A stretch of 16,372 bases of DNA, from the NCBI GenBank assembly GCA_905250055.1, contig CAJNOF010000033.1:895821-912192 (forward strand), read 5' to 3'. Shown here piece by piece: positions 1 to 16,372 of the stretch; the stretch's first letter is position 1; every line of letters starts with the position of its first letter. The DNA is from Rotaria sp. (taxonomy: Eukaryota). Under the pieces are notes generated by a model. The model worked only from the letters and a program-made list of their open reading frames with translations, was not told the DNA's origin and made no database searches. The translations under genes and the position numbers were made by a program.

Positions 1-52
1 CATTACAATTAGGAACAGTTTGCTTTAGTCAGGGATCAGGCCCAGTGATTTA

Positions 53-148
53 TCTACTGGGTGGGCTCGGTGGGCGCCGCCCACTCGAAAATATACAGCA
101 GCCATTCGTCTACTGGGTGGGCCGAATGGGCGCCGCCCACCCGAAATT
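53..148. repeat. GC-rich tandem repeat of about 56 nt, 2 copies (53-92 and 109-148, about 36/40 identical). Each copy carries the near-palindrome GTGGGCG-C-CGCCCAC
   Basis: The copies are tctactgggtgggctcggtgggcgccgcccactcgaaaat and tctactgggtgggccgaatgggcgccgcccacccgaaatt. Local GC is far above the window average. A gatcaggcc motif flanks the repeat on both sides (about 35-43 and 192-200). Confidence 0.7.
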
Positions 149-356
149 TCGACTCGCTCACTCGGAAAACGAAATCTAGATAAAACACTGATCAGGCCTA
201 GACCAAATTGAGCGGAACTATGAATGAAATCTTTGAACAAAAAGTTATCAGGACCCTCACTGGGGTTTTAAACCAATCTGATGAGCCCTGCCTGCGCATC
301 TCTAGTAGTGAAGGACCGGTTTACTTCAATCTTTATATGATTTTCTATTAGGATGT

Positions 357-857
357 ATGTGTGTTATATATTTTAATTTCAAAGAAGTTTCCTCTTACAA
401 CTTTCTTTTTGTATTTTTGTTTGAAGTTCCTTATTTGGCATGCAAACCATTCGAACATTATCCTGAATCAAAAGTTTATCAATATTGTCAAGATTTTCAA
501 GAATATAGAGATAAACAATTAAAAAATTCCTATAATAAAATTTATGAACAAACATATTTTCGTGGTAGTCATTATATTAAAAAATTTTTTAATTTTTTAA
601 TTGGTATAAAAGATTGGATTATGAATTTTTTGGATGATATTTATTATTCAATAAAAAAAACATATCATCGACAAGTTAATAAAGTTAAAGATCGTGTTGA
701 TGATGTTGTATCAACAACAAAAGATAATGCTAAAGAATATTGTGATGCTAGTTTAGAAAAAGTTAAAACTTTAGTTGATGAATTTAAACGTGAAAAAGAT
801 AAATTACTTGGTAGTCGACATGCATTAAAACCTGGACAAGAAAAAGAATTAGAAGGT
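357..857 (+). CDS. SUN gene, first visible coding exon; the 5' boundary is uncertain (an acceptor-like ttgtttgaag ends at 426) and the 3' end is firm
   Basis: ORF 357-923 in the track. It shows the MVP-like codon bias (cgt/ggt/gct/tta/aaa/gaa) from about 470 onward. The donor is ggt|gtaagt at 858. The N-terminal part MCVIYFNF.. is probably intronic read-through. Confidence 0.55.
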
Positions 858-2819
858 GTAAGTAGAAAATTATTGACACAAAAAAAAAAGCAATTTTTAT
901 TAAGAAAATTGTTTTTGTTTTAGCTTATTCGACAGTTACTTGATGAATATGCTGCTGATGAAACTGGTCAAGCGGATTATGCACTTGAAGCTAATGGTAA
1001 GAAAATAAAAAAAACCAACGAAGAGAAAATGTTTCGTATTATTTTTTTTGTGTATCTTAGGTGGAAAAATTGTTGATACAAGATGTACTGAATATACTGA
1101 TGAACCTCGACAAAATGTTGTGAAATTTCTTGGTATTCCGATAGTACATATGTCTAAACAACCAGATATAATGATAAAAGTTTGTTAATTTTGATGTTTG
1201 AATTTTTATTTGCTTTGTTATTTATAGGCTGGTCGAATGCCTGGTCAATGTTTTCCATTTAAAGGTGATCAAGGTAGTGTTATTATTAAATTAGCTGTAC
1301 CCGTTAAACCAACTGAATTTGTACTTGAACATTTATCGAAAAGTATTTCAATTGTTGGACATATTAATAGTGCACCGAATAATTTTACTGTTTATGTAAG
1401 TAGAAATTTAAAATTATATTTTTATAGAATTGTAGAAGTTAATTTTAATTAATCCTAATAAAGAAACTTGTAAGAATAGTTGATAGATTCTATGTAATGT
1501 TCTAATAAAAAATTGTAAAAAAAGGATTCGGGTTTCTATTAACATGGCATTAAGTTATGGAATTTTATTCCAGACGTTATAGTATCTATAGGCATTAAAT
1601 AATTGAAATAGATCCGTTGAAGAGATTCGCTCGTCAGTGATAGCAGTAAGAGCTTAAGCTCCCTCTCAAAAATCGATCTCAGCCCAGGAACATTCAAATG
1701 ACATGAAAAAAACAGCTCTTTAGTATCTCCATGTTTTCTCTGTGGGTCTTCATTCTAGACATTTAATTTTTTTTTTGTTTGAAAGAGCATATCAGAATGC
1801 AGCGACTCTCGCGGCCCTTTTTTTTTAAAGTCTTACTTTTTAGGAGAAAAAACCGGAGCGAAAGTTCAATGACTCAAAAAATCTCTCTAAAAATTGCGCT
1901 GCTTCGATAGAGATGTTATCTTCTATGATAATAAAAAACTTATTTTAAAAAAAGGGCCACGAGAGTCGCTAGCCTTGCACATAAGCTTTCAAAAAAAAAA
2001 TATTTGGCTTTATCTCTTACTATGATGGAGTTCTGCTGGAGATACGTCGTTGAACCCATGTTCTGAGAAAAACAAAAAATGATTTTCGGTTTTTTGTAAA
2101 AACGGCCTGTTTTTCGGAGTTATGACTAGTTTATTGCATTTTTGACTTATTCTTGTCTACTTGTCGTGACAGTCAAATCACTGAAGTTCGATCGAAAATT
2201 TCACCCATAGGTAAGACTCGTAGTAGATAAAATATCCTGAACAGAATGCATCGTTGTTGAGGTATGAAATGTTGAAAAAAAAAGTATGTCGAATGCGACC
2301 TGTGATGATTCCTTTGTATTAGAGATTATTAATGAAAAAGTTCTAAAACTTTATAGGAAGATTAATTTAATTTGATCGGTAAGATGAAAATATAATGAAA
2401 TAATCAAAGTAAAAATTCAATATTGTAGTGAAGAGCTTTTAGTTAAACATGCTTATTGTTTGAAAGTATTTTGTTTTTGAATTTTTATACGAAAGATTTA
2501 TTTTTGTTTTATTTTTAGGCTTTGAAAGATAAAAATGATAAAGAAGGTACAGTTTTGGGTCGATATTATTATGATGCAGAGAACGGTCCATCACTTCAAC
2601 GATTTAAACCTCAAGTTTGTTTTATTTTTTTTTTGTTATATTATCAATAAAATAAATTTGTTTTGTATTTAGCTTCGTCATGTACCGACAATTGAATATA
2701 TTGAACTTCGAGTAACATCAAATTGGGGAAATCCAAATTACACATGTGTATATCGATTTCGTGTTCATGGTGATTTGCCAGCGGTTCAACCATCAGCACC
2801 ACCAGCACCGGCTGCATAA
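357..2819 (+). CDS. SUN-domain (Sad1/UNC-84 family) nuclear-envelope protein gene, 5'-partial, about 6 coding exons: (357/427)-857, 924-996, 1061-1179, 1228-1395, 2519-2614, 2673-2819
   Basis: Spliced translation gives a coiled-coil-like segment (..[30 protein letters not shown]..). The rest reads [25 protein letters not shown]|[39 protein letters not shown]|[56 protein letters not shown]|[32 protein letters not shown]|[36 protein letters not shown]. This matches the conserved SUN-domain core (DYAL..G..I....CSETY / W.F.G..G...I.L / Y..F.V.G) from established knowledge. All junctions have GT donors and pyrimidine-rich AG acceptors and keep the frame. No transmembrane segment is visible, so the true 5' exons probably lie upstream or outside the window. 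Confidence 0.8.
924..996 (+). CDS. SUN gene exon ([24 protein letters not shown], phase-1 end)
   Basis: Acceptor ttttgttttag at 913-923; donor g|gtaaga at 997. Confidence 0.7.
1061..1179 (+). CDS. SUN gene exon ([40 protein letters not shown])
   Basis: Acceptor gtatcttag at 1052-1060; donor gtttgt at 1180. The frame is restored by a single G carried over from the previous exon. Confidence 0.7.
1228..1395 (+). CDS. SUN gene exon ([56 protein letters not shown])
   Basis: Acceptor tttatag at 1221-1227; donor gtaagt at 1396. Lies within ORF 1237-1452. Confidence 0.75.
1770..2000. mobile_element. Foldback / MITE-like inverted-repeat element inside the 1.1-kb SUN intron
   Basis: The left arm tgaaag..gcagcgactctcgcggccc-T9 lies at about 1780-1829. 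The right arm A7-gggccacgagagtcgctagc..ctttca lies at about 1944-1995. The core is 18/19 bp complementary, flanked by complementary T and A runs and a weaker outer tgaaag/ctttca pair. The internal spacer is about 115 bp. No ORF is present. Confidence 0.5.
2519..2614 (+). CDS. SUN gene exon ([32 protein letters not shown])
   Basis: Acceptor atttttag at 2511-2518, following a 1123-nt intron; donor gtttgt at 2615. Confidence 0.7.
2673..2819 (+). CDS. SUN gene terminal exon ([48 protein letters not shown], stop TAA 2817-2819)
   Basis: Acceptor ttgtatttag at 2663-2672. The conserved C-terminal SUN motif is NW..P.YTC.YRFRVHG. Confidence 0.75.
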
Positions 2820-5900: not shown

Positions 5901-6060
5901 TTTTTAAACATCGGAATCATTTATCAATAATTTGTTTTTTTTTTTTTAAGTGATGTTTTGCTCATGATGATTCATAGAGATTTACACGTCTGTGTTCTGT
6001 CATCGTTATTACTAACTTGAAAGAATATAAAAAACAAGCTACACGTTGTGCAATAACAAC

Positions 6061-6126
6061 GATGGCGATGATGACGACGATACAGAGAGAGAGAAATATA
6101 GATTTTTTTTCTCTCATTCTCTCTCT
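6061..6126. repeat. Cluster of simple repeats, (GATGRC)n, (GA)6 and (TC)n, about 160-220 nt upstream of the MVP-A ATG
   Basis: The sequence is gatggcgatgatgacgacga tacagagagagagaaatatag ...ctctcattctctctc. Confidence 0.7.
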
Positions 6127-6223
6127 TTTTTTTTGTGAGGGGCAAACTTGCACAATACTTTGAAAAAAAATATTTCACTGTCTCCCGTGTAATATCTTGT
6201 GCATGTCTCTATTGTTTTTCATT

Positions 6224-6282: not shown

Positions 6283-6476
6283 ATGAATCCATCGACTACG
6301 ACTACATCTACTAATAAAGGTGGCTCAGGTCCATTGTATCGTATACCACCTTACCATTATATACATGTTTTGGATCAAAATACAAGTGTTACAAGACTTG
6401 AAGTTGGTCCTAAAACATTTATTAAACAAGACAATGAAACAGTTACTATCGGACCTGAAAAGATGATTACAGTACC
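6283..6476 (+). CDS. MVP: MVP-A exon 1 ([65 protein letters not shown], phase-2 end)
   Basis: The ATG at 6283 is preceded by a TATA-like ttttataag about 50 nt upstream. The upstream in-frame ATG at 6199 has non-genic codon usage. The donor is cc|gtacgt at 6477. This junction gives ..TVPPRHYC, the same position as in MVP-B. Confidence 0.75.
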
Positions 6477-9400
6477 GTACGTAAATCATTTCTAAATAAA
6501 GAAAAATAAGTAAATCAATACTTATTTTAAATTATTTCTAGACCACGTCATTATTGTGTGATTGAATCACCTGTAGTACGTAATGAAGCAGGAGAAGTAC
6601 AATATGATCAAAATGGTCAAGCTAAACTTGTTCATGCTGATTTGGATATTCGTCTTGCACAACCTGATCAAGCACCATTCCCACTTTATCCTGGAGAAGT
6701 TCTTCGTCAAGTATGAAAAACAAAAAAAAAGAAAAATCGATATTTTTCTTATTTCTATTTTATTTGTTTGATCTTATTTTTAGCCAGTTACACCTTTAAA
6801 AGTTGTACCAGCTAATTCAGCATTACGCTTAAAAGCTGTACTTGATTTTGAAGATGAAACAACCAAAGAACAACGTCGTGCCGGTGATGAATGGTTATTT
6901 GAAGGACCTGGAACATATATTCCACGAAAAGAAGTTAGTGTAGAAGAACAAATTCGTGCAACTATAATTGGTCCTAATCAAGCTATTCGACTTAGTGCAA
7001 AAAAAGAAATCATTGATCGATCAGGACAACGACGTGTTACTGGTGAAGAATGGTTGGTTAAAAAAACTGGTGCCTATTTACCACTTGCCTATGTAAATAA
7101 AATCAAGTGTCTTTTTTTTTAGAAATTTTAATTTTTTTTCTTATTTATTAAATATTTTAGGAAACAGTGGTTTCTGTTGAAAATGCACATGTTTTAACAG
7201 ATAAAAAAGCTCTTCATCTTCGTGCTCTTAAAACTTTTACTGATGATTTTGGTAAGAAACGTATGAATGGTGAAGAATGGCTTGTTACTCTTAACGATAC
7301 TGAAACACATACACTTAGTGTTTATGAACAATTAGTTGCTATTGTTGATGTAATAACACTTAATTCACGTCAATATTGTGTTATTCTTGATCCAGTTGCT
7401 GCTGATGGAAAACCACAATTAGGAAAAAAGGTTTGTTTTATGAACTAAGATCTAAAACGAGTGTTGAAGTAGAAATTTGGGCTAATATACAGATATTGAC
7501 GGACATCTTAGTAACATATGTCTGAAAATTGAGTTGAGACATTGGATAGTTTAAAAAATCAAACATATATTTTTGTGCCGTAACGGAGGCAGTGATGACT
7601 CAACCGATTGTCTTACAGTTCTAATACCAGATCTGTCTCAAAATAGATAAACAAAACCATTTTTCTATGGTTAAGTGTGTTTTTTATATTGGAATTTCTT
7701 TACTTTTTTGTTTTTAGAAACTTATTGTTGGTGAAAAATCATTCTTTCTTCAACCGGGTGAAAGACTTGAAAATGGTATTCAAGATGTTTATATATTAGG
7801 TGAAGATGAAGGTGTTATTCTTAAATGTATTGAAGCATTTACTGATGAACAAGCTGGTACAGAACGAAATCCAGGTGATCGATGGATGATTCGTGGTCCA
7901 AGGTAAGATATTGATTTGTTTTTTTTTCTTTCAAAAAAATAAAATAAAATCTTTATTTTATTTTATTTTATTTTAGTGAATATATTCCTCCAACACAAGT
8001 TGAAGTTGTTACACGTCGTAAAGCAATTCCATTAGATGAAAATGAAGGTATTTATGTTCGTGATATAAAAACAGGTCGTGTACGAGCTGTTATTGGTGAA
8101 ACATATATGTTAACACAAGATGAAGAACTTTGGCAAAAAGAATTACCTAAACAAATTGAAGATTTACTTTCACGTGATCCATTAGCTGAACGAAATGTTC
8201 CAACACGTAATCAAACATCAGATAAAACTCAACAACAAACATCTACTACTACACAAGCAACAAGTTCAAAATCAAGTACAACAAGACGTGACAAATCCCA
8301 ATTAATTACTTATCGTGTACCACATAATGCTGCTGTACAAATATATGATTATAAATCTAAAAAAGCACGTATTATTTTTGGTCCTGAACTTGTTATGCTT
8401 GGTCCTGATGAACATTTTACATTACTTTCATTAAGTGGTACTGTACCAAAAAAACCAAATCAAATTCAAACACTTTGTTTACTTCTTGGTCCTGATTTTT
8501 TTACTGATGTTATTGTTATTGAAACAGCTGATCATGCTCGTCTTTCACTTCAACTTTCATATAGTAAATGAATGAATTCGAATTGATTTTATTTTTTTTA
8601 TTTTTTTATTTATTTAGATTGGCATTTTGAAGTTAGTGATATGAAAGATGAAAAAGAAGCTGCAAAACTTTTTTCAGTTCCTGATTTTGTTGGTGATGCA
8701 GCTAAAGCTATTGCATCACGTATTCGTGGTGCTGTTGCTGGAACACAATTTGATGATTTTCATAAAAATTCAGCACAAATTATTCGTGCATCTGTATTTG
8801 GTCTCGATGCTAATCAACATATACGTGATCAATTTGTTTTTCCACAAAATAATCTCGTTATAACATCAATTGATATACAAAGTGTTGAACCAGTTGATCA
8901 ACGTACACGTGATGCACTTCAAAAAAGTGTACAATTAGCTATTGAAGTAAAATAAATTAAATTATTTTATTTAATAGATGCAAAAAAAAAATCTATTTTT
9001 CAATTAGATAACAACAAATTCACAAGAAGCTGCAGCTAAACATGAAGCTTCACGTCGTGAACAAGAAGCTAAAGGTTTATTAGAACGTCAACGTATTAAA
9101 GATGAAGCTGATGCTGAACAAGTTCGTAAACAACTTTTGGAATTACAAGCTCTATCAGCTGCTGTTGAATCAGCCGGTCAAGCTAAAGCTGAAGCACAAA
9201 GTCGTTCTGAATCAGCTCGAATTGAAGGAGAAGCTGCTGTTGAACAAGGTACAAAGAATATTAATAAAAAAAAATATATATAATATCTAAATAATGAACT
9301 TTTTTTTTTCCATTATTTCTTTTGAATAGCTCGTCTTAAAGCTGAAGCTACACGAATTGAAGCTGAAGCTGAATTAGCACGTTTGAAATTAGCACGTGAA

Positions 9401-9730
9401 GCTGAAATAAAATATTTAGGTGAACAAAATGAATTAGAAATAAGTAAAAAATCTGAAATGTCAAGAATTGAAACAGACAAATTCAAATTACAAGTTGAAT
9501 CAATTGGTGCATCAACTATACAAGCTATTGCTACTTCTGGTCCAGATACACAAGTTAAACTTTTACAAGCACTTGGTCTTCAATCAATGTTAGTTACCGA
9601 TGGTCGTACACCAATTAATCTTATGGGATTTGGACAAGGTCTTTTAGGTGGTTTGACTAGTAATACAAATAAAAAAATACGATCATCAACTACAGCTTCA
9701 AGTAATTATCATGTTGAAGAACATGAATAG
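6283..9730 (+). CDS. MVP: Major vault protein paralogue A (MVP-A), complete, 9 exons, about 894 aa: 6283-6476, 6542-6710, 6784-7092, 7161-7430, 7718-7902, 7977-8563, 8618-8946, 9008-9248, 9330-9730
   Basis: The spliced product is collinear with the MVP family along its whole length. It contains [73 protein letters not shown] and [10 protein letters not shown]. It also contains [117 protein letters not shown] and [38 protein letters not shown]. The C-terminal coiled-coil and cap-helix region is present (..[22 protein letters not shown]). Total exon length is 2685 nt, which equals 895 codons. Every junction is GT...AG and keeps the frame. Confidence 0.9.
6542..6710 (+). CDS. MVP: MVP-A exon 2 ([56 protein letters not shown])
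   Basis: Acceptor ttatttctag at 6532-6541; donor gtatga at 6711. Confidence 0.8.
6784..7092 (+). CDS. MVP: MVP-A exon 3 ([25 protein letters not shown]...[17 protein letters not shown])
   Basis: Acceptor ttatttttag at 6774-6783; donor gtaaat at 7093. Confidence 0.8.
7161..7430 (+). CDS. MVP: MVP-A exon 4 ([42 protein letters not shown]...[19 protein letters not shown])
   Basis: Acceptor aatattttag at 7151-7160; donor gtttgt at 7431. Overlaps ORF 7167-7448. Confidence 0.8.
7718..7902 (+). CDS. MVP: MVP-A exon 5 ([61 protein letters not shown], phase-2 end)
   Basis: Acceptor ttgtttttag at 7708-7717, following a 287-nt intron; donor ag|gtaaga at 7903. Confidence 0.75.
7977..8563 (+). CDS. MVP: MVP-A exon 6 ([30 protein letters not shown]...[15 protein letters not shown], phase-1 end)
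   Basis: Acceptor tattttag at 7969-7976; donor a|gtaaat at 8564. Contains ORF 8107-8571. Confidence 0.8.
8618..8946 (+). CDS. MVP: MVP-A exon 7 ((N)[41 protein letters not shown]...[12 protein letters not shown])
   Basis: Acceptor tttatttag at 8609-8617; donor gtaaaa at 8947. Contains ORF 8641-8955. Confidence 0.8.
9008..9248 (+). CDS. MVP: MVP-A exon 8 ([80 protein letters not shown], phase-1 end)
   Basis: Acceptor ttcaattag at 8999-9007; donor g|gtacaa at 9249. Confidence 0.75.
9330..9730 (+). CDS. MVP: MVP-A exon 9 ([37 protein letters not shown]...[57 protein letters not shown], stop TAG)
   Basis: Acceptor tttgaatag at 9321-9329. Contains ORF 9383-9730. AATAAA candidate at 9829-9834. 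Confidence 0.8.
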
Positions 9731-9828
9731 ATGAGAACATTCGACAATTAATACGTTCTTTATTCATGTGTGTTTACGTTATTTTCTATACACTTAGTTT
9801 GATTTCTTTTTAAATACTTATGTAAGAT

Positions 9829-9834
9829 TAATAA
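9829..9834 (+). other. AATAAA polyadenylation-signal candidate for MVP-A
   Basis: It lies about 100 nt downstream of the TAG stop. A second AATAAA lies at about 9921. Confidence 0.35.
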
Positions 9835-11049
9835 ACTTAACGAACAATTCTTTTATCGATTCAATTTTCTATTCTATACTGAAGTTAAATGAAGATGTTT
9901 ATATAGTTTCAATTATTATAGAATAAATATTCGACTTGAAACAAAAAAACTATTGTGTATTAAATGAATATAAATCGAGAGAGAAATAATAGACTTCAAA
10001 TGATGTGCAAAGATTTTCGGAGGTTCAATAAAAAAAACCATAAAAAAAAAAGTTTCATAGATAGATATGATCATGACGAATACTTTTTCATTCGGAACGA
10101 TACCATTTATGTAAGAGTAAAAATTGCATCGAATGTCAAGTTGACCCGATTTATGTGTCCCACCATAAATATAATAATCATACATTGTTATTTTCTTTCT
10201 TTTTGTGAAATTTCATTGCGAAGGTATTATGAAATATAGGTTGCAATATCACCATAAACTCTGATAATCATAGTTTACCAGTAGGATGATTTTTGTCCTA
10301 ATCTAGAAAAAAAACATATTCTTAATTGTATTCGTATTGTAGATAAAAATCGAATATTCGATTGAGATATGGTATTTTGTTTTCTCATTCTGATCATCAT
10401 GATTTAAAAATTTGACATCATACATCATTATTTACAGCTTATAAAATAAGCATAAAAATCAAAATATCTATCATTCATACTCTTTTCATAACGTATGACA
10501 GACAATATATAATAACTAATATATTGAATAATATTTGACTTCTTATTTTAATTTCCTTTTGATAGTGTAAATCATTTTCTATCCAAACTAATGAATTGCA
10601 CTCTGAATAAGGTCACAAGAATTTTTATTCGATCTTTTTTTTTTCTTTCATAAATTCAAGGTTATTCTTTTGTTAATTACATTTTCGTTCTGCTTACTAG
10701 GTATTTCTATGTTTTATTTTACCTGTCGATGGATACTTATGTAAATAACTATGCACATCTTACTTTTCTTTTACCTTGAAATTAATAATGTTTTCAAGTA
10801 TTACTTGAATAGAATATGTGATTCATATTTAATGCTTTTTTGTTTTCAAAGAATACTAATTCTTATAATATTTTATTGTTGATAATAATGATTCAAAAAA
10901 AAAAATGTCTATACGTTACACAAATACATAAAACGAAATAAATGTTATAATAAAAATGTTTCGAATTTTGTTTGTTTGTTTTTTTTTTCTTTCAAAAATC
11001 TGACTGCACTCGAGTCAAAATTATTTTAAGTTGTTTAAATAACGAGTGC

Positions 11050-11169
11050 TCAATTTTGTTGTACCATACTTGATCCAACTAAATCAACAGCTGTATTAAA
11101 AAGATTAATTGGGCTACGTCCATCAGTAATTAATGTTGATTTAATACCAAGAGCTTGAAGAAGTTTAAC
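11050..11169 (-). CDS. MVP: MVP-B exon 13 ([39 protein letters not shown], stop TGA)
   Basis: The acceptor ttttttaag is the reverse complement of 11170-11178, after an intron carrying an A16 tract. The stop is the reverse complement of tca at 11050-11052. Confidence 0.75.
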
Positions 11170-14100
11170 CTTAAAAAAAAAAAAAAAACAATAACAAAAG
11201 AAAAAATAAAGATAAAACAAAAAATTCACTTGATTGTCTGGTCCACTAGTAGCAATAGCTTTAATTGTTTCTGGTCCAATAGAACTAACATGTTCTTTAA
11301 ATTCATTGATTTCAATTTCAGCTAATCGTTTAGCTTTATCAATATCTAGATCAGTTGTTAATTTCGAATAATTTATATCTAATTCACGTGCTTGTGTTAA
11401 ACGTTGAAGTTCCATATCAGCTTCAATTTTTGCTGCTTTAGAACGAAGTGTAGCTAAAATGAAAATATATATATGAATATGAATAAAAATATATAATTGA
11501 AAAAATTAATGTTTATTTACCTTGTTCAACAGCAGATTCACCCTCAATTTTAGCAGCTTCAGCTCGTGATTGAGCTTCAGCACGTGATTGACCAGTTGAT
11601 TCAACAGCTGCTGATTCAGCTTGAAGTTGTAATAATTTTCGACGTTCCTTTTCAGCTAAACAAATAAAAAATGAATTTATATTATAAAACAATCTTTAGA
11701 TAAGATATATAAAAATAATTACCTTCAGCTTCATCAGTAATCTTTTGTCTTTCTAAAAGACCTTTTGCTTCTTGTTCTGTTCGTGAAGCAATATGTCTAA
11801 AAAGAATATTTTAATAATGAAAATGTATTTTATTATTTCTAATAAATCATTTTTACTTTGCTTGAGCTTCTTGAGAATTCGTTGTAATCTAAAGAATTGA
11901 TTTATATTAATTATAATAAAAAAATCAAATTGATTTATTTTCTTACTTCAATAGCTAATTGTACACTCTTTTGAAGTGCATCACGTGTACGTTGATCAAC
12001 TGGTTCAACACTTTGTATATCAACTGATGTTAAAACTAAATTATTTTGTGGAAATAGAAGACGTTTATTAACACGTTTATTTTCATCAAGACCAAATACA
12101 GATGCACGAATAATTTTTGCTGAATTCTTATGAAAATCATCAAATGATATACCAGCAACAGCACCACGAATTTTTGCTGCAACAGCTTTACAAAAATCTC
12201 CAATAAAATCAGGAACAGAAAAAATTTTTGAAACTTCTTTATTATCACTACGATTATTAACCTTTATAAGAAAAAATAATAATAATAATAATAAAATTTC
12301 AAAATCAAACAACAATTTTTCTTTTTTTTTTTTGTCTTACTTCAAAATGCCAATTATATGAAAGTCTAAGTGAAAGACGTGCATGATCACTTGATTCAAT
12401 TGTAACAATATCACTTGAAAATTCTGGTCCCAATAAAAGACATATAGCACGAATTTTATTTGGTACTTTAGGTTTTTCACCCGATAAATTTAAAACTGTA
12501 AATTGTTCATCAGGATCAAGTATAACAAGTTCAGGACCAAAAACAATACGTGATTTTTTAGATTTAAAATCATATATTTGTACAGCAGCATTATGTGGTA
12601 CACGATAACTAACAACTTTTGATTTATCTCTTGGTGGAGTAACATTTGGTGTATTAGATTTATCTTCAAAATGTCGTGCATCTAATACAAGTAATTGTTC
12701 AACTTGTGCTGGTAATTCTTTTTCCCATAATTCTTCATTTTCAGTTAATAAATATGTACTACCAATAACTGAACGAATTTTACCAGTTTTAACATCACGA
12801 ACATAAATACCTTCATTAACATCTAATGGTACAGCTTTACGTCTTAGAATAACTTCAGCTTCAACAGCTGGTATATAATCTTTTGGACCTCGAACCATCC
12901 AACGATCACCAGGATTACGTACAACTTTCTATTTAAATAGAATATAATTAATTAATTAATTTTTTTTTTGTGAAAGGAAAAATTAAAATCATATAAATAC
13001 TTACTCCATCTTCTTTAAATGATTCTGTACAACGAAGAATAAGACCTTCATCTTCTTCAAGAACATATACATCTTGTATACCATTAGCTAATTTTTCACC
13101 AGGTTGAAGAAAAAATGTTTTTTCACCCTTAAAAAAGAAATTGTTTTTTATTTTTAATGTTATAATTAAATCAAATTTATTTATACTTTAATTAATTTTT
13201 TCTTTCCTAATTGAGGTTTACCATCGGAATCAACTGGATCAAGAATAACACAATATTGACGAGAATTTAATACTGTTACTGATACAACACCAACAACCTA
13301 TGTTTAAATATTAAATTATTTCTATTTTTGTCTTTCTATTCAAAAAAAAAAAATGAACCTACTTCTTCATATACATCAGGAATATATGTTTCAGCATCTT
13401 TTACATATACTAACCATTCTTCTCCATGAAGACGTTTACGTTTGAATGCATCAGTAAATGTTCGTAATGCGCGAACATGAAGAGCTTTCTAAAAAAAGAT
13501 CAACATCAATATAAGATTATAATAATAATAATATCTTATCTACTTTATCAGTAAGAACATAAGCTGTGACAGTTGAAATAACTTCTTCATAGGCTAATGG
13601 TAAATATGAACCAACAGTTCTATTAAGCCATTCTTCACCTGTTTCTCGTTCAATACCATCACGATCAGTCATTTCTTTTTTAGCACGTAAACGTACAGCT
13701 TCATTAGGTTTAAGAATAACAGCTTTAATTTGTTCTTCAACACTAACTTCTTTACGTGGAAAATATGTTCCAGGCCCTTGAAAAAGAAATTCATCACCAG
13801 CTCGAATTTGTTCACCTTGTTCATTAATAAAATCAAGAACAGCACGAAGACGTAAAGCACAATTAGGTTCAATAACTTTTAATGGTGTTACAGGTAGTTT
13901 AAGAATTTCTCCTGGATAAAGTGGAAATGGTTCTTGTGCAAAACGTATATCAACATCAGAATGAAATAATTTAACTTGACCATTTTTATCTATAACAACT
14001 TTATCATTTTTATCTCGAACTGCTGGATTTTCAATAACAGCATAATGACGTGGACTATATACAACAACAATAAAAAAAAAATAAAACAATATGATAAAAA

Positions 14101-14345
14101 CTAATTTTCAACCTACGGTATGATTAACATGCGTTCAGGTCCAAGTATAACTTTTTCATGATCTTGTTTAACAAAAGTTTTTGGACCTACTTCAAGTCGA
14201 GTTACATTTGTATTTTGATCAAGTACATGTAAATAATAGAAAGGAGGAATTCGATATACTAAATATATAATCATATAGTAAAAAACCAAAACGTCATTAT
14301 TTATTAATGATATATCTTACCACCGCTAAGTTTTGGATCAGCCAT
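11050..14345 (-). CDS. MVP: Major vault protein paralogue B (MVP-B), complete, 13 exons, about 841 aa (plus-strand coordinates): 14321-14345, 14117-14258, 13544-14054, 13363-13488, 13187-13297, 13005-13127, 12341-12928, 11947-12261, 11857-11888, 11723-11796, 11521-11655, 11230-11453, 11050-11169
   Basis: The reverse-strand spliced product begins MADPKLSG|[48 protein letters not shown]|[18 protein letters not shown]...[32 protein letters not shown]. It continues |[42 protein letters not shown]|[37 protein letters not shown]|[41 protein letters not shown]. The next segment is |[73 protein letters not shown]...LSYNWHFE|[37 protein letters not shown]...SVQLAIE. It ends |[11 protein letters not shown]|[24 protein letters not shown]|[45 protein letters not shown]|[32 protein letters not shown]...SGPDNQ|[39 protein letters not shown]. 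This is about 65-70% identical to MVP-A across the alignable regions. Total exon length is 2526 nt, which equals 842 codons. Every intron is GT...AG and 55-79 nt long. Confidence 0.88.
11230..11453 (-). CDS. MVP: MVP-B exon 12 ([75 protein letters not shown])
   Basis: The acceptor attttag is the reverse complement of 11454-11460. The donor gtgaat is the reverse complement of 11224-11229. Upper part of ORF 11050-11415. Confidence 0.75.
11521..11655 (-). CDS. MVP: MVP-B exon 11 ([45 protein letters not shown], phase-1 end)
   Basis: The acceptor tttgtttag is the reverse complement of 11656-11664. The donor g|gtaaat is the reverse complement of 11515-11520, the same position as the MVP-A exon 8 donor. 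Confidence 0.75.
11723..11796 (-). CDS. MVP: MVP-B exon 10 ((K)[24 protein letters not shown], phase-1 end)
   Basis: The acceptor ctttttag is the reverse complement of 11797-11804. The donor g|gtaatt is the reverse complement of 11717-11722. Confidence 0.7.
11857..11888 (-). CDS. MVP: MVP-B exon 9, a 32-nt microexon ([10 protein letters not shown] + aa, phase-2 end)
   Basis: The acceptor ctttag is the reverse complement of 11889-11894. The donor aa|gtaaaa is the reverse complement of 11851-11856. It is flanked by introns of 58 and 60 nt. The frame only works with this exon included. Confidence 0.65.
11947..12261 (-). CDS. MVP: MVP-B exon 8 ([37 protein letters not shown]...[13 protein letters not shown])
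   Basis: The acceptor tcttataaag is the reverse complement of 12262-12271. ORF 11935-12315 covers it. The donor gtaaga is the reverse complement of 11941-11946, the same position as the MVP-A exon 7 donor. Confidence 0.8.
12341..12928 (-). CDS. MVP: MVP-B exon 7 ([45 protein letters not shown]...[15 protein letters not shown])
   Basis: The acceptor atttaaatag is the reverse complement of 12929-12938. ORF 12305-12898 covers it. The donor gtaaga is the reverse complement of 12335-12340. Confidence 0.8.
13005..13127 (-). CDS. MVP: MVP-B exon 6 ([41 protein letters not shown])
   Basis: The acceptor ttcttttttaag is the reverse complement of 13128-13139. The donor gtaagt is the reverse complement of 12999-13004. 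Confidence 0.75.
13187..13297 (-). CDS. MVP: MVP-B exon 5 ([37 protein letters not shown])
   Basis: The acceptor aaacatag is the reverse complement of 13298-13305. The donor gtataa is the reverse complement of 13181-13186. Confidence 0.75.
13363..13488 (-). CDS. MVP: MVP-B exon 4 ([42 protein letters not shown])
   Basis: The acceptor tttttttag is the reverse complement of 13489-13497. The donor gtaggt is the reverse complement of 13357-13362. Confidence 0.75.
13544..14054 (-). CDS. MVP: MVP-B exon 3 ([18 protein letters not shown]...[20 protein letters not shown]). It spans the region that MVP-A splits into exons 2, 3 and part of 4
   Basis: The acceptor atatag is the reverse complement of 14055-14060. 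ORF 13517-14089 covers it. The donor gtagat is the reverse complement of 13538-13543. Confidence 0.8.
14117..14258 (-). CDS. MVP: MVP-B exon 2 ([48 protein letters not shown], phase-2 end)
   Basis: The acceptor tatttag is the reverse complement of 14259-14265. The donor cc|gtaggt is the reverse complement of 14111-14116. Confidence 0.75.
14321..14345 (-). CDS. MVP: MVP-B exon 1 (MADPKLSG, 25 nt, phase-1 end)
   Basis: The ATG (reverse complement of cat at 14343-14345) sits in the context cactATGG. The donor is g|gtaaga, read from the reverse complement of 14315-14320. No alternative in-frame ATG exists in exon 2. Confidence 0.6.
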
Positions 14346-14401
14346 AGTGGTTTGTTTTTGTTATCAAAAAAGAAACGACAAATCTGCAAGAATAAAACGT
14401 C

Positions 14402-14411
14402 CTTTTATGTA
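14402..14411 (-). promoter_or_regulatory. TATA-like element (minus strand ACATAAAAGG) about 60 nt upstream of the MVP-B start codon
   Basis: It is the reverse complement of ccttttatgt. The call rests on motif and position only. Confidence 0.25.
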
Positions 14412-16372
14412 TGTTAATATCCGTGTAGAAAAAAAAAATGTGCATTAAAAAAGGGTTATATGAAACAAGAAGAAAAAAAACAACAATTTTCAACTTGATT
14501 GTGAAATGACATTAGTATAAGTTAACGTTAAACATTGCACGACTAACCTACAATAATAACTGAATAAGGTTGATTCATGTCATAAATAAGAAGAAAGAAA
14601 GAAAAAAACAGACGATACAAAGAGAGTGAATTAGAGAAAGAACGCAAGAGCCCCTTTTTGACACATTATATTGCAACATAGTCATGAAAGTATAAAAACT
14701 TAGCAATTTCATTTAATTCTGAAATATTCTAAATGCGTAAAAAAAAATGCGATAATGAGTTGCTTCTTTCTGATGTAATAATTGATATCTAAAATAAAAT
14801 CTAATATGATTGGATATGACGTCTACTTTTTTTTTTTGATCTAGATAAGAAAGAAATCAAATAGAGCAAAAAAAGAAATTTTACTTTTTTTAAATTTCGT
14901 TATTATTGAATATGATAAGTATATGTGTTTGTCAAAAAAATAACCATGGCTATGGTGAAAACAAGACTTACATTCGAATTTTTATTGATTTAGGATAATT
15001 ATATTTATATGTCATTCATAGCCGAGCGAGCGAAACAGCAAATTTTAAGATAGAAGTCGATAGTTCCAAAAAAAAAATATTCGGAATCGAATCGACGATC
15101 TAATAATAGTATATTTGATAACTGATACAATAATTTTTCTTCTCGAAGTTGTTAACGTCTATTTTGTTTCTTTAATGAAGAATTATATTGAAGTGAAACT
15201 TTGTACAAACATAAGGGGGTGTCTAATTATACATACAAAGATATTTCAGATTTGTATCTCATTGTTAGTAGGACCTAGGACAATTTCAATATATTTATAA
15301 TACTTAATTTTGATATCTATGGCATTCAATCAACTGAGTAGAAAATGTCTATTCAGTTTTTTTTCTTTATTTAACCCAAGACACTGCTTTCTATTAACTC
15401 TTGTAAATCTCTTCTAATGTTTTCCTTCTTTCTCTGATCTTGAGACATAGACTACGTCAAAAACGTTTTGCGAAAACTGAGAAAATTTTATGAAAAGATG
15501 AACTTGAAGTTAGGATGATTATGACAATGCTAAATATTTTCTGTGCTCTTAATCATACTTTTGGCTGCTTTTGATTTTTCTTTTCATCAAGGTGTAAGAA
15601 ACATACATAGTTTATCTTTAGTGTGATCGTAGATTGTTCCCTTCGACTTTAGTTTATGAAACATTCGAACAGCTTACCACTGATTATTTCAAGAGGTTTT
15701 AGTGCAAGGGGGAGAGCAGCTAAAACTTTCATGTTAAACTCTCATGAAATCTTCTGAAACCCTGCAAAATCTTTGGAAAGAATTTCGACCAATACCCGAC
15801 AAAACATTTGAAGAGGTAATTAAGTTTAGTAAATCTGTTACCGACTTTATTTGCAATCAGACAAAGACCTGAAGTTAGTCATAGTTCTTGAATTGTCAAG
15901 TCTTCCGATATCTTGAAGGTAGAGTCCTAATATGCTCAAGTTTTTTAACTTTCTCCCCCTATCAAAAGGGTGTAAGTATAAGTGCGTGCGATGGATAAAA
16001 TAGAGTTCTTGCCTTCACCTACATCCTATTAGTACGACAGTTTTATCCATGAATATTCAAAAATGTTGATAGAATATTTCTTTTCTAGCGATTTTCAAAA
16101 TCGAAAAAATTATTGATGCAATCCTTGTTTAGTATTTTCCGATAAATTTGTACGTAAATCATCAAATACTATCTTGACTTTCTTCAAAGGTAACAATACC
16201 AAAGCCATTAGTTTTCGAAAGCTAGTATGAGTATCCATATCTTCGACATAATTTTTTTGTAAAATATCCTGAATTGTCAATATATAGTTACTAAACGGAA
16301 ACTATGACACTACTTTATTTCTTTTCTGTTATCTTTTGACTTGTGTATGATCTATGTGATAATGTTAGTATC

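Follow-up and report, generated by a model that had tools for sequence, protein, structure and literature searches.

The function of vaults is still unclear, and the structural and cell-biological work on these particles has been done nearly entirely on mammalian vaults, which contain a single shell subunit. A passage of PMC3762200 that cites Vasu and Rome 1995 reports that loss of either major vault protein (MVP) paralogue deforms the vaults of Dictyostelium, and MVP paralogues are also present in kinetoplastids and in Paramecium (PMC3762200). For bdelloid rotifers, Moris et al. 2024 (BMC Biol, PMC10809525) describe five MVP genes that are over-expressed in Adineta vaga after radiation, and the supplement of that paper lists PARP4-like genes with a VIT domain for the same species. 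We analyzed a stretch of 16,372 nucleotides from the bdelloid Rotaria sp. (GCA_905250055.1, contig CAJNOF010000033.1, positions 895,821 to 912,192 of the forward strand), which is called the window below. It contains two MVP genes, MVP-A and MVP-B, that are convergent (tail-to-tail), with stop codons 1,319 bp apart. We consider it very likely that they represent an ancient, selectively retained pair shared by the sampled bdelloid genera.

Exon models of both genes were joined by hand at GT...AG sites from a reading of both strands and were then verified by translation. The base composition of the window is AT-rich (24-33% GC), and a prokaryote-style listing returned many short pieces of open reading frames (ORFs), a pattern typical of eukaryotic DNA whose introns are short. 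A preliminary description of this stretch had claimed two complete, convergent MVP genes of 894 and 841 amino acids, about 1.3 kb apart and 65-70% identical at the protein level. Coordinates, lengths, orientation and spacing all matched our models (Table 1), and the global protein identity that we measured was 66% (556/840). Canonical GT...AG ends were unambiguous in 19 of the 20 introns. The junction of MVP-A intron 5 (7902/7977) has a one-base ambiguity: with a start at 7903 the intron begins with GGTAAG by base count, the listing of introns gives GTAAGA, in keeping with a start one base further on, and the ends of the chosen site were also read as CT...AG. This alters residue 376 only (S or R), and the downstream frame is unaffected because the acceptor can move by the same base. 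The introns of both genes were 54-81 nt long, with the exception of MVP-A intron 4 (7431-7717), which has 287 nt. This intron is four times as long as the others and less AT-rich; the A gene of R. socialis is approximately 330 bp shorter overall, and intron 4 may be a lineage-specific insertion.

Both proteins matched MVP references from end to end. The Pfam set of MVP was complete in each of them (Vault in four copies, Vault_2, Vault_3, Vault_4 and MVP_shoulder; E values from 1e-17 to 1e-67). The repeat array R1-R9 was represented by PF01505 (four stretches, E values from 1e-64 to 1e-67), PF17794, PF17795 and PF17796, all above the curated cut-offs. The shoulder domain PF11978 was aligned over the full profile (1-118 of 118) at residues 547-665 of MVP-A (176 bits) and 513-631 of MVP-B (165 bits). 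When compared with solved human/rat MVP, each protein gave one uninterrupted phmmer alignment: residues 18-868 of MVP-A with residues 7-850 (1129 bits), and residues 9-835 of MVP-B with residues 7-851 (1124 bits). Cap-helix and cap-ring were contiguous with the shoulder in both proteins, and both had a separate match to the cap fragment 9z5n_B (A 771-868, B 737-835). The predicted products of both genes are complete canonical MVPs with nine repeat domains, shoulder, cap-helix and cap-ring. Judging by 63-66% identity to MVPs that do assemble, A or B would be expected to form the 78-subunit vault.

We dated the duplication with a neighbour-joining (NJ) tree of 54 sequences (847 columns, 100 bootstraps). 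Rotifer MVPs were monophyletic (bootstrap 100), and the bdelloid sequences formed an A-type clade (100) and a B-type clade (100), each of which contained Didymodactylos, Adineta and Rotaria. As both clades span all of these genera, the A/B split is older than the deepest bdelloid divergence sampled. Didymodactylos is an early-branching bdelloid. The A and B clades together were sister to a monogonont clade (Brachionus and environmental sequences) with 71% support. Going by this tree, the duplication is probably younger than the bdelloid-monogonont split, with loss of one type in monogononts possible at a support of 71%. Among 17 intron positions, three were shared (A1=B2, A7=B8, A8=B11), five were found only in A and nine only in B. 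The differing positions agree with a great age. The inverted pair may have arisen either by an inverted duplication in place or by a tandem duplication followed by an inversion.

The convergent pair was kept in R. socialis, A. vaga and Didymodactylos carnosus (Table 1). The B gene of A. vaga is annotated as partial, yet tblastn covers residues 9-836. The whole window was 100% identical to contig CAJNOP010000073.1 of the Rotaria sp. Silwood1 assembly GCA_905250075.1 (L004, 3719-20090), and the public annotation of this contig has genes of 894 and 841 amino acids at exactly the coordinates of our hand models. The same arrangement, A(894) -> <- B(841), was present in five Silwood1 assemblies with 99.1-99.9% nucleotide identity, and there too the annotated genes of 894 and 841 amino acids agree with our coordinates; at least one further contig carries the same protein. 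Records entered as "unnamed protein product [Rotaria sp. Silwood1]", CAF0982318.1 among them, were 100% identical to the MVP-A protein. The exact MVP-B protein had no identical entry in the protein collection searched, and the deposited model was compared by coordinates and length only.

Further MVP loci were identified in the Silwood1 genome. There is a homoeologous locus, a third pair that has diverged further (Table 1) and a solo A-type gene, P0021 (L018), and the genome carries at least four A-type and at least three B-type loci, i.e. at least seven. The gene model P0125 of the third pair (L008/L009, 10001-17961) begins with leucine-rich-repeat (LRR) sequence where R1 of MVP should be. Since tblastn places the true R1 exon at approximately 14450, the model seems to be fused with an LRR gene that lies upstream. 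On an environmental contig (L015; JGI 3300071516, Ga0620986_00212) three or four MVP genes form a head-to-tail array at 2974-18591: one is intronless and complete, two have two small introns each and one is truncated. The MVP of this array groups with Brachionus. Local amplification of MVP genes thus also occurs outside bdelloids, and local MVP duplication looks common in rotifers.

For the analysis of selection, codon pairs were taken from tblastn high-scoring segment pairs (HSPs) and dN/dS was calculated by the NG86 method. For MVP-A and its orthologues dN/dS was 0.135 (R. socialis) and 0.146 (A. vaga). For MVP-B it was 0.178 (R. socialis), 0.203 (A. vaga) and 0.071 (JGI transcript). As judged from the coding sequences, both types are under purifying selection.

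Evidence of expression came from two sources. An uninterrupted B-type ORF of 841 amino acids (P0122, L011), 86-87% identical to MVP-B, was found on 2.75-kb contigs from two JGI samples. These contigs are spliced mRNA of a B-type gene and validate the exon structure. In A. vaga, Table S5 of PMC10809525 gives two adjacent full-length MVP genes, FUN_011957 (mean 8758) and FUN_011958 (mean 8625), with log2 fold changes of 2.55 and 2.48, respectively, 2.5 h after X-rays, which is approximately 5.5-fold. A gene of the Exostosin family, FUN_011960, is located two genes from this pair (PMC10809525), and this matches the block order of the window locus: B, A, SUN, Exostosin. On the Silwood1 contig CAJNOP010000073.1 (L004) the Exostosin gene lies just upstream of the Sad1_UNC gene. 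In similarity searches FUN_011958 was the more Lottia-like member of the A. vaga pair, as was the A-type. The FUN_011957/FUN_011958 pair may be orthologous to the window locus or may instead correspond to its homoeologue.

Several points weaken the reading of this locus as an ancient, retained pair. The tree is an NJ tree only, and support is 71% at the node by which the duplication would be younger than the monogonont split. The dN/dS values are rough, because they come from HSP-derived codon pairs and the NG86 method and because the GC content at third codon positions (GC3) is only 3-8%. The transcript evidence is from the A. vaga pair and the JGI B-type contigs, and synteny and relative similarity to Lottia are the only ties between the A. 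vaga pair and the window locus. On the other side are the 100% A and B clades, the few shared introns, the purifying selection and the conservation of the pair across bdelloids. They bear out the preliminary view of an old pair that has been retained, and not of a recent copy.

We propose that one ancestral rotifer MVP gene was duplicated locally in the bdelloid stem lineage. Both copies have stayed convergent, a few kb apart and beside the same SUN-domain gene, while Didymodactylos, Adineta and Rotaria diverged. Later the whole pair was duplicated again, giving the homoeologous locus and the third, more diverged pair. Both genes are intact, each has conserved promoter blocks of its own, and, going by the JGI contigs and the A. 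vaga pair, both types are transcribed. The A and B proteins would supply two subunit types to the vault system.

We compared the two types column by column, with domain limits carried over from the human alignment; the boundaries are reportedly those of Tanaka et al. 2009. Near-invariant columns (at least 80-85% consensus in each group) across A, B and the outgroups numbered 377 of 894. Fixed B-derived changes were found in 31 columns, of which six are in R4 and nine in the shoulder, and fixed A-derived changes in 12 columns, four of them in the cap-ring. The extra length of MVP-A consists of a low-complexity insertion in the R8 loop (approximately 443-478) and a C-terminal tail of 26 residues. 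The long A-type tail has an acidic end motif (YHVEE-), as in many invertebrate MVPs, while the B-type stops a few residues past the cap-ring. In R1, the residue after QD(N/H)E is basic in outgroups, monogononts and the B-type (K44), and it is T in the A-type (T53). In the cap-ring, the A-type has PINLMGFGQ and all others have PINLFNTA. We take the basic residue of R1 to be the equivalent of rat Arg42, which presumably makes salt bridges between the two halves at the waist of the vault. If this is so, the A-type may be without one waist contact kept by the B-type, which we offer as a lead.

Conserved footprints were observed upstream of both genes (Table 1) and support functional transcription units. 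R. socialis, A. vaga and the Silwood1 genes P0009, P0021 and P0034 all have the block TTGTGCAA(T/G)AAC in their A-type promoters, at positions from -209 to -237. The palindromic TTGYGCAA cores of the A-type blocks resemble what we take to be C/EBP-type, bZIP-like sites, and this is a resemblance only. A C/EBP gene is among the radiation-induced genes given for A. vaga in PMC10809525. TTGYGCAA was position-conserved in A-type promoters and occurred also in the A. vaga B promoter; it was not found within 1 kb of Rotaria B genes, where the aligned block is TTTCACAA. We considered a common cis-motif of A and B promoters as the basis of co-induction and rejected it, as none could be demonstrated for the Rotaria genes. 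Just upstream of the B-type ATG, the sequence TTATTCTTGCAG resembles a splice acceptor, and it hints at an intron in the 5' untranslated region (UTR) and an upstream non-coding exon outside the B model.

As to the use of the two proteins, we tentatively favour co-assembly into mixed particles, or into particles with an A half and a B half, although we would rate it at slightly below an even chance. We favour it because the two genes of the syntenic A. vaga pair are nearly equal in expression and in their response to X-rays, because A and B have retained ancestral features in a complementary way, and because Dictyostelium alpha and beta set a precedent. Co-assembly is harder to reconcile with the Rotaria A and B promoters, which have no obvious common motif, and with the fact that mammalian MVP builds vaults by itself. 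The model of polyribosome-templated assembly would favour particles made from one mRNA. Moreover, a half-vault has 39 subunits, so strict A-B alternation cannot close the ring. A stronger version, in which bdelloid vaults are two-subunit A+B particles, either laterally mixed or with an A half-shell joined to a B half-shell, and the pair has been kept and is co-induced after radiation or desiccation since equal amounts are needed, seems to us rather unlikely.

It is plausible, without being probable, that A and B instead form two separate homomeric vault populations that differ in regulation, cargo or tissue, and that their linkage is inherited microsynteny. Each protein has every MVP domain and both score equally against solved MVP, so each should assemble alone, and the polyribosome-templating model points the same way. 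The conserved promoter blocks of A and B in Rotaria are distinct, the solo A-type gene P0021 exists, and since synteny across genera extends to the flanking genes, the linkage need not be selected. However, separate particles do not require the near-equal means and fold changes of the A. vaga pair (8758 vs 8625; 2.55 vs 2.48), and in Dictyostelium it is the loss of either paralogue that deforms the vaults (as cited in PMC3762200). The A-type is also without the ancestral basic residue of R1 and has an altered cap-ring motif, and B keeps both.

We regard it as improbable that one copy has left its duty in the vault shell for another role, e.g. in secreted or structural material. A precedent is the MVP of salmon louse in the cement of egg strings (PMC11219742), and B has its 31 clade-specific fixed substitutions and is without the acidic C-tail. 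Nevertheless, neither model has an N-terminal extension fit for a signal peptide, all vault domains are conserved, with 377 of 894 columns near-invariant across A, B and the outgroups, and dN/dS is low along the whole length.

The two genes show patches of 80-87% nucleotide identity (8653-9031 vs 11865-12246; 8277-8421 vs 12497-12641), and the apparent dS between them was just 0.54 overall and 0.2-0.3 over A codons 476-700. Such values would suit a recent, fast-diverging duplication, or paralogues partly homogenised by gene conversion, and we find either very improbable. With a GC3 of 3-8%, identical residues are nearly forced to have identical codons, which accounts for the low apparent dS and for the patches; 412 identical codons were observed and 380 were expected from codon usage. 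In the region of low dS, dN was 0.21, which is not lower than in cross-species A-versus-B comparisons (0.21-0.25). Given the codon composition and the unreduced dN in the patches, we reject gene conversion between the inverted copies as a significant factor. In addition, A and B each group with their own orthologues with 100% support, and 14 of 17 intron positions differ. GC3 was approximately 20% in the R. socialis orthologues and 22-35% in the third Silwood1 pair (L008).

Bdelloid draft assemblies have in the past yielded false palindromes, and one Silwood1 assembly (L017) appears to lack the B-type gene at the homoeologous locus, but we see hardly any chance that assembly or haplotype artefacts produced the pair or that one copy is a pseudogene: the structure recurs in five Silwood1 assemblies, four species and one chromosome-level assembly, an identity of only 66% between the copies is far below what haplotypes would show, both ORFs are intact with canonical splice sites in 19 of 20 introns, and the breakpoint of the 7.8-kb difference in L017 coincides exactly with a scaffold gap of 67 N (13880-13946), so that no deletion is demonstrated. 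An assembly artefact or separate haplotypes, which could have undone the preliminary description, are refuted by this evidence across assemblies and species.

The surroundings of the two genes are included in Table 1. The spacer between them has AATAAA at 9830-9835 on the plus strand and at 10872-10877 on the minus strand; no ORF with a family match and no Rfam match was found in it. In two other Silwood1 assemblies (L003/L005, 13832-13911) the spacer is approximately 56-68 bp longer and holds an inverted copy, 94-95% identical, of window positions 9798-9879; the comparison also involves window positions of approximately 10120-10132. We read the difference as a small structural polymorphism of the 3' region that the two genes share. 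An ORF scan detected nothing gene-like in the 3.4 kb upstream of MVP-A, in the spacer, or upstream of MVP-B. Inside the region of the Sad1/UNC gene there are two tandem 48-nt copies (43-90 and 99-146), 81% identical and GC-rich in surroundings of approximately 30% GC, with the palindrome GTGGGCGCCGCCCAC and no Rfam match. An Rfam E-value scan of the window gave no vault RNA or other non-coding RNA above threshold. A match to mir-7359 at 6081-6133 was rejected as sub-threshold (29 bits vs a gathering score of 90).

Table 1. Features of the window (window coordinates) and the arrangement of MVP pairs at other bdelloid loci.
Feature	Position	Strand	Details
MVP-A gene	6283-9730	+	ATG 6283, TAG 9728-9730; 9 exons; 894 aa
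MVP-A exons	6283-6476, 6542-6710, 6784-7092, 7161-7430, 7718-7902, 7977-8563, 8618-8946, 9008-9248, 9330-9730	+	last exon includes TAG
MVP-B gene	14345-11050	-	ATG 14345-14343, TGA 11052-11050; 13 exons; 841 aa
MVP-B exons 1-7	14345-14321, 14258-14117, 14054-13544, 13488-13363, 13297-13187, 13127-13005, 12928-12341	-	
MVP-B exons 8-13	12261-11947, 11888-11857, 11796-11723, 11655-11521, 11453-11230, 11169-11050	-	last exon includes TGA
AT-rich spacer, 1,319 bp	9731-11049	.	between both stop codons; 3' UTRs and polyadenylation regions of both genes
Conserved A-type block TTGTGCAATAAC	6046-6057	+	approximately -237 from ATG
Conserved A-type block GAAATATAGATTT	6093-6105	+	common to Rotaria and Adineta A-type genes, including old paralogues
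Conserved A-type block AAACTTGCACAAT	6144-6156	+	approximately -135; at -132 to -135 in five Rotaria/Adineta A-type promoters
Conserved B-type block TTGCGTTCTTTCTCTAATTCACTCTCT	14621-14647	-	four aligned B-type upstream regions, Rotaria and Adineta
Conserved B-type block TGTCATTTCACAATCAAGTTGAAAA	14487-14511	-	four aligned B-type upstream regions
Conserved B-type block CATACATAAAAGG, TATA-like	14401-14413	-	four aligned B-type upstream regions
Sad1/UNC (SUN-domain) gene, 3' part	1-2819	+	conserved upstream neighbour of MVP-A; 653-aa gene annotated at L004 257-6537
Silwood1 homoeologous locus (L016; GCA_905250075.1 CAJNOP010000029.1)			Sad1_UNC, A-type P0009 (887 aa) -> <- B-type (839 aa), TPT transporter
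Silwood1 third, more diverged pair (L008/L009)			B-type P0125 -> <- A-type P0034 (840 aa)
R. socialis (L013/L014)			TPT, B (841 aa) -> <- A (892 aa), Sad1_UNC, Exostosin
A. vaga chromosome CP075497.1, 8.18-8.21 Mb (L010; locus tag I4U23_029823)			TPT, B -> <- A (890 aa), Sad1_UNC
Didymodactylos carnosus (L006)			B-type 861 aa -> <- A-type 864 aa

In summary, these results suggest that two distinct MVP types have remained next to each other throughout bdelloid history, with at least seven loci in one genome. They offer a tractable animal system for two questions, namely whether a second shell subunit alters the architecture or cargo of vaults, and whether vaults contribute to tolerance of desiccation and radiation. 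If bdelloid vaults do contain both subunits, bdelloids would be the first animals with heteromeric vaults, and vaults would be tied to extreme stress tolerance. In kind the locus is not surprising: the family is well known, the genomes are public and carry annotation already, and what is undescribed is a lineage-specific pair of paralogues. The preliminary description held that linked MVP pairs are not a standard feature of described vault loci. For most animals this is right, but MVP paralogues are documented in Dictyostelium, kinetoplastids, Paramecium and salmon louse, local duplication looks common in rotifers, and an adjacent co-induced pair is already in the published A. vaga table, where it passes without comment.

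Human/rat MVP (PDB 4V60, 4HL8, 7PKR and others) has the same Pfam architecture as A and B and aligns with them at approximately 1120-1130 bits over residues 7-850. The A-type differs from it by T after QDNE in R1 and by LMGFG in place of LFNTA, and the B-type by its very short C-tail. Most animals have a single MVP gene (PMC11219742), whereas Silwood1 has two ancient types. A close published case is that of the radiation-induced MVPs of A. vaga (PMC10809525), which belong to the same family in a sister bdelloid genus and include the adjacent co-induced pair. Our full-text literature searches, which paired vault or MVP with rotifer or bdelloid, found this paper only; the passages of it that were retrieved do not describe A and B types and do not mention pairing or conservation.

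The LsMvp1-3 genes of salmon louse and the paralogues of kinetoplastids and Paramecium are lineage-specific MVP expansions, as are those of bdelloids. LsMvp2 and LsMvp3 are on the same chromosome and are a recent, highly similar duplicate (PMC11219742), while the bdelloid pair is old (66% identity), convergent and kept across Rotaria, Adineta and Didymodactylos. A similar situation is that of MVP-alpha and MVP-beta of Dictyostelium discoideum, where, as in bdelloids, two diverged paralogues are kept in one genome; in bdelloids this likeness is seen in the genes (66% identity, 100% clades, orthologue dN/dS of 0.07-0.20). According to PMC3762200, Dictyostelium is the only studied case in which both paralogues matter for vault shape. 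The two pairs are of independent origin, as bdelloid A and B separated from each other within the rotifer clade (100%).

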